From: Escherichia coli
GTDB lineage: Bacteria; Pseudomonadota; Gammaproteobacteria; Enterobacterales; Enterobacteriaceae
Length of the DNA stretch: 64,000 nucleotides
Strand: one strand, 5' to 3'
Assembly: GCF_045037415.1 (NCBI RefSeq)
Contig: NZ_CP173438.1
How positions within the stretch are numbered: the first letter of the stretch is position 1; every line of letters begins with the position of its first letter. A program made the position numbers and the translations under genes. Below, in pieces: positions 46,727 through 46,830 of this stretch. Below the pieces are notes generated by a model. The model ran no database searches, was not told where the DNA came from, and saw only the letters and a list, made by a program, of their open reading frames with translations.

Positions 46727-46750
46727 TTGAGTATTAACCTCTCGCACAAA

Positions 46751-46768
46751 GATAACCTTTTGGTTATC
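46751..46768. promoter_or_regulatory. operator-like palindrome GATAACC-tttt-GGTTATC in the repressor/cox switch region
   Basis: Seen directly; a further GATAACC half-site lies ~25 bp to the left. Confidence 0.5.
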
Positions 46769-46830
46769 TTTACAAGCCAAAACAAACCATCACAAGGCGC
46801 GACAAGCGCACCAACGCAAGAGGATAACAA

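Follow-up and report, generated by a model that had tools for sequence, protein, structure and literature searches.

A P2-type C/Cox immunity switch in an Escherichia coli ST131 prophage, with a predicted repressor operator that includes a perfect palindrome

The 64-kb stretch of E. coli DNA analysed here (64,000 nucleotides, hereafter the window) carries a complete P2-like prophage of ~38.5 kb. It lies between serS and dmsA of an ST131-type chromosome and contains int, a repressor gene, cox, replication endonuclease A, portal, terminase, P2-family capsid and tail genes, and ogr. The prophage was found in 256 of 5,426 complete E. coli genomes at an identity of at least 99%, pandemic ST131 among them, and the 3-kb stretch around its switch is 100% identical in many ST131 genomes and in the E. 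albertii genome L012. The phage record ON470599.1 was rejected as a whole-phage reference because it is a mis-bounded prophage call that includes host genes. The genes of the switch are arranged in the order int (minus strand), C (minus strand), a 104-bp spacer and cox (plus strand):

45323-46315, minus strand: tyrosine integrase, second gene of the lysogenic operon (Pfam Int_N and Phage_integrase; RefSeq CDS)
46385-46726, minus strand: repressor of the P2 C family, 113 aa, ATG start (HTH_3; match to the P2 C structure; RefSeq WP_001368591.1)
46738-46743, minus strand: Shine-Dalgarno sequence of the repressor gene, GAGAGG, read from the sequence (CCTCT core conserved in the alignment)
46831-47352, plus strand: first early-operon gene, encoding a long Cox-family protein of 173 aa (Pfam Phage_Cox; phrog_23196; RefSeq 'Cox family DNA-binding protein')

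The repressor is a single small domain that matches only HTH families in Pfam, and it belongs to phrog_147 (2.5e-29). A phmmer search of the PDB gave 2XCJ/2L49, 'C protein', as the best match (E 1.1e-14), in which residues 9-89 align without gaps to residues 6-86. The repressor is 35% identical to P2 C and ~50% identical to WPhi C (over 77% of the length), and the nearest non-identical phage record is 54% identical. Its start codon appears as CAT on the plus strand at 46724-46726. A first-pass annotation of this DNA had remarked that the repressor start of the open reading frame list would run through the repeats described below, and had preferred a shorter start. Both remarks hold, as the longest open reading frame starts from a TTG at 46780 and encodes 131 aa, and the ATG at 46726, which gives 113 aa, is the start in RefSeq. 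Furthermore, in four of eight relatives an in-frame stop is located 5-12 codons upstream of the repressor ATG, with no alternative start. Therefore, the 131-aa version is an artefact, and sequence comparison identifies the short start as the correct one. The Cox protein matches Pfam PF10743 (Phage_Cox) over residues 58-129 with 31.2 bits, against a gathering cut-off of 27.5, and resembles the larger 'group 2' Cox proteins described by Nilsson et al. (2011). The region had already been proposed to be a P2-like immunity switch, and this is borne out by P2 C as the best structure match, the Phage_Cox match, the int-C-cox order and the P2 genes downstream. By these features we assign the switch to the P2-type C/Cox family.

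The start of the repressor gene and the spacer contain three exact copies of a 9-mer, which we call O1, O2 and O3. These elements, together with the annotated strand, are as follows:

46716-46724, plus strand: O1 half-site AAGATAACC, exact 9-mer, between the Pe -35 and -10, overlapping the first repressor codons
46728-46734, minus strand: GAGTATT, candidate degenerate partner of O1, identical to GGTTATC at 4 of 7 positions (by itself not significant)
46749-46757, plus strand: O2 half-site AAGATAACC, covering roughly +1 to +10 of Pe, 33 bp from O1 and forming the left palindrome arm
46762-46770, minus strand: O3 half-site AAGATAACC, right arm of the palindrome, exact 9-mer
46700-46835, plus strand: tgcgtagtcta-TTGACA-AGATAACC-ATttgagtat-TAACCT-ctcgcaca-AAGATAACC-tttt-GGTTATCTT-t-ACAAgccaaa-ACAAaccatc-ACAAggcgcg-ACAAgcgcaccaacgcaagaggataacaa-ATG

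The 9-mer occurs four times in the window when both strands are counted, against ~0.5 expected; three of these copies lie within 55 bp and the fourth, at 4964, is far outside the prophage. The shorter GATAACC occurs 19 times in the 64 kb, and a Poisson estimate puts the chance of three GATAACC within 55 bp anywhere in the window at ~8e-4. No further exact AGATAACC is present in the whole 38.5-kb prophage, and one-mismatch copies of the half-site number 40 there, against 20 expected. Together, O2 and O3 make up an inverted repeat without mismatches (10+10, AAAGATAACC/GGTTATCTTT, 46748-46771) whose arms are separated by 4 nt. Its core, GATAACC-N4-GGTTATC, is 18 bp long, and the centres of the two half-sites are 11 bp apart. 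The first-pass annotation had pointed out GATAACC-TTTT-GGTTATC in the spacer, which was found at 46751-46768 and extends to this longer repeat, and a third GATAACC half-site in the same spacer. This third copy exists, at 46718-46724, but it is outside the spacer (46727-46830): it overlaps codons 1-3 of the short repressor reading frame, and the overlap with the start codon had been missed. The centres of O1 and O2 are 33 bp apart, about three helical turns, and the two sites are parts of a 19-nt direct repeat with 84% identity (AAGATAACCATTTGAGTAT versus AAGATAACCTTTTGGTTAT). By this repeat, O1 resembles a duplicate of the entire site whose right half is degenerate and matches at 5 of 8 positions in the relatives called group B below; the resemblance is suggestive only.

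Promoters were predicted by a PWM scan, and the following elements are considered:

46711-46716, plus strand: Pe -35, TTGACA, invariant in relatives, with the same placement with respect to the C start in P2 and WPhi
46735-46740, plus strand: Pe -10, TAACCT, with an 18-nt spacer, from the PWM scan (TATCCT or TAATCT in relatives)
46786-46814, minus strand: Pc candidate, TTGGTG, 17 nt, TGtGATGGT (PWM 5.67, weak and within background; P2-like geometry)
46821-46850, minus strand: alternative Pc candidate, TCGGCA, 18 nt, TGtTATCCT (PWM 7.69, within background)

The predicted Pe scores 11.35; among 181-bp windows of this sequence, the 95th percentile is 9.54. The same PWM recovered the mapped Pe promoters of P2 and WPhi. 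The 18-nt distance between its -35 and -10 was also found in other genera. A consensus scan found no promoters at 46300-47000, because of its strict rules. O1 fills the spacer between the predicted -35 and -10, and O2 lies around the predicted start, downstream of the -10. For the leftward promoter the scan is less informative. The candidate at 46821-46850 is conserved, but the ribosome-binding site and coding sequence of cox confound this conservation. With the same PWM, even the mapped Pc of P2 and that of WPhi have background-level scores, so placement of Pc by this method is unreliable. Two other Pc candidates that overlap O3, TTGTGA-18 nt-AAAGAT and TTGTAA-15 nt-TATCTT, were rejected, as their -10 is not conserved in group B. 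Thus, of the face-to-face promoters that had been suggested, prediction places the rightward one, Pe, above background and the leftward candidates within it. The face-to-face arrangement itself is proposed by analogy with the family.

Comparison with relatives revealed that the repeats change together with the repressor. Ten relatives from the serS/dmsA site were aligned, five with group A and five with group B repressors. Group A repressors are 87-100% identical to that of the window, and their recognition helix 3 reads LAT(I/V)RNYES. Their half-sites are AAGATAACC at all three positions, except for AAGATACTC at O1 of NRZ14408 and GATTATCTT at O3 of three relatives. O3 is therefore kept within one base in this group, as GGTTATCTT or GATTATCTT, whereas the 4-nt spacer between O2 and O3 drifts (TTTT, GTTT, GTAC, TTTC) and so do the flanks. 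Group B repressors are 71-73% identical to that of the window, with a helix 3 of VGTIGNYES, and their half-sites are TGTTCACC at O1, yCTTCACC at O2 and GGTGAAGwA at O3. The UTI89 prophage PhiECO5, which was checked separately from the ten aligned relatives, has the same repressor protein as group B. Therefore, all three sites, one of them inverted, switch to the same new word between the groups. This co-variation covers two immunity types, that is, one replacement event plus minor variants. The differences in helix 3 fall at the equivalents of P2 C Tyr31, Gly32 and Ser35 (window residue = P2 residue + 3), and Tyr31 and Ser35 of P2 C are positioned for DNA contact (Massad et al.).

The sites and the DNA-binding part of the repressor belong to one divergent block:

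46483-46771, no strand assigned: immunity cassette with the repressor DNA-binding domain, Pe and O1-O3, the sole divergent block against UTI89-type relatives

In a sliding-window comparison with a group B prophage, identity is 45-78% inside this block of ~290 bp and ~100% outside it, from within int to beyond cox. The block holds exactly the N-terminal 81 repressor codons, Pe and O1-O3, and it ends on the right with the final base of the palindrome. In the alignment, this is the pattern classically left when an immunity region is exchanged as one piece, a discrete recombinational block. The half-sites had been suggested to be operators, and this is supported by three results: they co-vary with the recognition helix, they sit in the immunity cassette, and they bracket the Pe -10 as in WPhi. 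The same comparison separates two near-copies from the operator. GGATAAC at 46822-46828 (GATAACa at 46823-46829), in the cox ribosome-binding region, is kept in relatives of both immunity types and is therefore not operator-linked. Similarly, AGATAACT, an inverted near-copy at 46856-46863, was rejected as an operator because it is conserved in both immunity groups.

From 46772 rightward the spacer is conserved across immunity types, along with Cox. This part contains short repeats, which have counterparts elsewhere in the prophage:

46772-46805, plus strand: four ACAA, candidate Cox boxes, starting at 46772, 46782, 46792 and 46802 with an exact 10-bp period
45283-45325, plus strand: candidate Cox site in the arm of the attachment site, made of ACAA-type boxes with a period of ~10 bp beside the 3' end of int

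The pattern ACAA-N6-ACAA-N6-ACAA, with at most one mismatch, has six matches in the window against 0.39 expected. Besides those in the switch, matches are found at 45302 (the int 3' end), at 48050 and 48060 (a second divergent intergenic region) and at 57247. The boxes at 45283-45325 and the switch region have the 11-mer AAGCCAAAACA in common. In P2, cox-boxes are 10-11 bp apart, overlap Pc and are also present at attP. Because of the 10-bp period, the enrichment and the likeness to P2 cox-boxes, the ACAA repeats are plausible Cox boxes, and the Cox-family protein probably represses Pc by binding at 46772-46830.

Could O1-O3 themselves be bound by Cox or a host factor (IHF or DnaA, for example), or have arisen by chance? 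GATAA/TTATC resembles parts of several host-factor motifs, and Cox-family proteins bind repeated boxes in this spacer. However, conservation between immunity types is ~100% for Cox and for the DNA rightward of 46771, whereas the half-sites are replaced along with the repressor's DNA-binding domain, and the site of a host factor would not switch its sequence with a phage repressor. The Poisson estimate given above argues against chance. We therefore find this explanation scarcely credible. The palindrome could also act as a hairpin in RNA or DNA, for instance by stabilising the Pe transcript as a 5' stem-loop, or as a pause or termination element between convergent promoters. Indeed, it would give a 10-bp stem with a 4-nt loop in the Pe leader (-14.4 kcal/mol, z = -4.4), and in group B both arms change together so that pairing is kept. 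On the other hand, O1 belongs to no hairpin and yet acquires the new sequence of the arms, and the changes track residues of the recognition helix. There is no U-run, the terminator scan makes no call, and no Rfam match was found. A hairpin function is thus very improbable, and the RNA hairpin in the Pe leader is a by-product of the palindrome, which necessarily forms one.

Instead, we consider it likely that 46711-46830 is a P2-type C/Cox promoter-operator region, in which the predicted Pe would be controlled by the 113-aa repressor through the three AAGATAACC half-sites, with O2/O3 as a dimer palindrome. Most likely, the O2/O3 palindrome would be bound by one symmetric C dimer whose two recognition helices both read the sequence specifically, and another C dimer would occupy O1, with one good and one degenerate half-site. 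Cooperation of the two dimers over a distance of three helical turns would then silence Pe, and occupancy of O3 could also dampen leftward transcription from Pc.

This use of the palindrome differs from what has been described for the family. The mapped C operators consist of direct repeats only, which are 22 bp apart in P2, 26 bp in P2 Hy dis and 34 bp in WPhi, and the C family is cited as a rare symmetric HTH dimer that reads non-palindromic direct repeats. The crystal structure of P2 C is a symmetric dimer like the palindrome-binding P22 c2, on which P2 C superimposes, with 26 A separating the recognition helices in both; those of P2 C face two consecutive major grooves. Its authors proposed one dimer for each 'half-site', with one helix alone reading specific sequence. 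WPhi C can bind a single half-site. Since the mapped operators have no inverted partner, O1 and O2 could suffice to control Pe here as well, in the style of WPhi and P2, and O3 could be accessory (e.g., in autoregulation of Pc) or a non-functional by-product. Besides the two-direct-repeat form of every mapped C operator and the single half-site binding of WPhi C, the O1-O2 distance, nearly that of WPhi, and the position of both repeats around the -10 speak for this. The concerted change of O3 with O1 and O2, and its constancy in group A next to a drifting spacer, speak against it. So does the structure: the geometry of O2/O3 fits the symmetric dimer of P2 C, which would be expected to read both arms.

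A survey of C-type switches bears on the same question. One genome per species was scanned for C relatives, and 170 bp around each C start was analysed for a perfect inverted repeat, with arms no shorter than 6 nt and a spacer no longer than 6 nt, that has a direct copy of its left arm (at most one mismatch) 20-36 bp upstream. This layout was found in 13 of 70 other non-redundant switches, compared with 42 of 2800 control windows from the same loci (1.5%; binomial p ~4e-11). The 13 switches come from Enterobacter, Cedecea, Citrobacter, Arsenophonus, Serratia, Pantoea, Trabulsiella, Yersinia, Oceanospirillum and others, and nearly all of their palindromes are 16-18 bp long. In addition, the type of half-site tracks the type of helix 3: KKYE goes with GGTTC, and xNYE goes with sites that end in ACC, namely GATAACC in the window, CTTCACC in group B, AGTCACC at an Arsenophonus locus, and the site of WPhi. 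With O3 so conserved and the layout recurring in other switches, we regard control by O1 and O2 alone as unlikely.

Among characterised phages, WPhi (immunity class III) is close to the window in its layout. TTGACA abuts the C start in both, one repeat of WPhi is in the -35/-10 spacer and the second is three turns downstream, and its 10-bp repeats are 34 bp apart compared with 33 bp here. Both have cox as the first early gene, and convergent Pe and Pc would be common to both as well, Pc here by family analogy. They differ in the half-site (TATTGGTGAC in WPhi, AAGATAACC here), in the inverted partner, which O2 of WPhi lacks and O2 of the window has in O3, in the size of Cox (~90 aa versus 173 aa) and in the length of the spacer (152 nt versus 104 nt). 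The other strand of the WPhi repeat TATTGGTGAC contains GTCACC. In our own reading, which is not published as such, O1 of WPhi is GTAACC-TATT-GGTGAC, a 5-of-6 pseudo-palindrome.

P2 shares with the window the repressor family, repeats that flank the Pe -10, the int-C/cox order and a repressor with no cleavage domain. The -10 elements of Pe and Pc are separated by 55 bp in P2 and would be separated by 51 bp here with the Pc candidate at 46786-46814. However, the 8-bp repeats of P2, 22 bp apart, include no palindrome, in contrast to O2/O3, and P2 C is the textbook example of a repressor that binds non-palindromic direct repeats. Thus, the description of C operators as two direct repeats only does not fit the window, as O2 has a perfect inverted partner. 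Literature searches found no papers on the switch of this prophage or on palindromic operators for C-type repressors.

More distant systems were compared as well. P22 c2, 434 cI and the controller protein C.Esp1396I are not homologous switch systems. P22 c2 and 434 cI place a symmetric HTH dimer on a palindrome of 14-18 bp, as proposed here, and C.Esp1396I has repeated palindromes that are bound by two cooperating dimers. Lambdoid phages have OR1-3/OL arrays, which are not present here, and O1 of the window is only half-specific. Unlike lambdoid repressors, that of the window is a single small domain with dimerisation built into its fold. Phage 186 (CI/Apl/CII) has a two-domain CI of ~190 aa, whereas the repressor here has 113 aa and a single HTH domain, and it has cII after apl, whereas no cII-like product is among the RefSeq annotations of the early operon here. 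The operators of 186 are inverted repeats with distal FL/FR sites. Distal operators of this type were rejected for the window, as no exact half-site is found elsewhere in the prophage, and the one-mismatch copies are scattered and unpaired.

The closest system that differs in specificity is PhiECO5 of UTI89, assigned tentatively to class IX (Nilsson et al. 2011). It shares the serS/dmsA site with the window, has near-identical int, cox and flanks, and has the same three-half-site architecture, but with yTTCACC instead of GATAACC at all three sites and with VGTIGNYES instead of LATIRNYES in the repressor. The repressor of the window is 73% identical to that of PhiECO5 (WP_000247830.1), and each of the three half-sites differs from its counterpart at 2-4 of 8 positions. 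Members of one immunity class have C proteins that are at least 95% identical, and their spacers and operators can be aligned and are equivalent; therefore, the prophage of the window does not belong to class IX. On these sequence data, by comparison with class IX, it represents a distinct and unnamed immunity specificity. Immunity classes I-VII were reportedly defined by Karlsson et al. in 2006.

As an annotation the result is of ordinary value: it fixes the repressor start, a predicted Pe and a predicted operator for a widespread E. coli prophage. The difference in specificity from the UTI89 prophage, which occupies the same site, leads to a prediction of which prophages of this kind exclude one another, and the GATAACC/LATIRNYES and yTTCACC/VGTIGNYES cassettes are a ready-made pair for specificity swaps. 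The wider interest, which is modest, lies in the light that the palindrome sheds on DNA reading by the C repressor family. The combination of a WPhi-style direct repeat with a perfect palindrome of 18-22 bp, which P2, P2 Hy dis and WPhi do not have, suggests a simpler ancestral binding mode and makes the locus an experimentally tractable intermediate between binding modes. Repressors of the P2 C family might be palindrome binders at root, with the 'direct repeats' of P2 and WPhi as the surviving good halves of two pseudo-palindromes; we hold this proposal to be evenly balanced between true and false. If it is true, this locus and its relatives in other genera would be a natural system for studying how a symmetric dimer came to read direct repeats.

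Compared with UTI89-type prophages, a stretch of about 290 bp (46483-46771) shows 45-78% identity, while the DNA on either side is ~100% identical. Judged from this alignment, 46483-46771 is a discrete immunity cassette. The C-terminal 28 residues of the repressor are encoded outside the cassette and are the same in both immunity types, A (the type found here, with GATAACC half-sites) and B (UTI89/PhiECO5 type, with yTTCACC half-sites). A second mosaic patch was observed in the part of int encoding the C-terminal region (45403-45562), which is 78-88% identical to strain 1190, versus ~100% around it. 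This patch may have arisen as a recombination tract, close to the end with the attachment site.

The operator half-site AGATAACC, the predicted repressor site, has two near-copies by the cox start:
46822-46828, GGATAAC, in the cox ribosome-binding region
46856-46863, AGATAACT, inverted, within cox
These are probably not operators, because both are conserved in the two immunity groups. Across the whole prophage (NZ_CP015085.1, 4745000-4786200), 40 one-mismatch matches to AGATAACC were found, about twice the shuffled expectation of 19.9, and no shuffle gave as many as 40. These matches are scattered and unpaired, and codon or composition bias is possibly behind the excess.

The switch also contains ACAA boxes with an exact 10-bp period, as do three other places:
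45283-45325, ACAA boxes adjoining the 3' end of int
46772-46805, ACAA boxes in the switch
48050-48083, ACAA boxes upstream of the DUF4761 gene, in another divergent intergenic region
57247-57270, ACAA boxes
A pattern search of the window for ACAA-N6-ACAA-N6-ACAA, allowing at most one mismatch, returned 6 matches (0.39 expected), and the 11-mer AAGCCAAAACA is common to the boxes at the int 3' end and the switch. The arrays are candidate binding sites for the long Cox protein.

Elsewhere in the prophage, a plasmid-type ParM gene and a partition/stability gene lie between the replication endonuclease and portal genes (~54305-55583); this is unusual cargo in a P2-like phage. Outside it, the remnant of another phage adjoins aroA (~27000-28855), with a partial tail protein, a tail-fibre assembly gene and a recombinase-family (invertase-like) gene. 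In the record ON470599.1, deposited as 'Escherichia phage vB_EcoM-569R5, partial genome', ~11 kb consists of host genes, from ycaO to dmsA, and the prophage's tail half is missing; the record is a mis-bounded prophage prediction.

The operator of WPhi, a P2-like phage, can be re-read. Its published O1 'direct repeat' TATTGGTGAC (AJ245959.1, 1765-1780) falls inside GTAACC-TATT-GGTGAC, a pseudo-palindrome at 5/6 positions, and in O2, GTTGTG-TATT-GGTGAC, only 2/6 positions match. This suggests that each WPhi repeat is what remains of a once-palindromic site, namely its right half together with the spacer. Among C-family switches of other genera, the operator half-site correlates with the motif of helix 3, the recognition helix; GGTTC half-sites pair with KKYE helices at 6 loci, and half-sites ending in ACC pair with xNYE helices. 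It is possible that the C family follows a simple recognition code of this kind.
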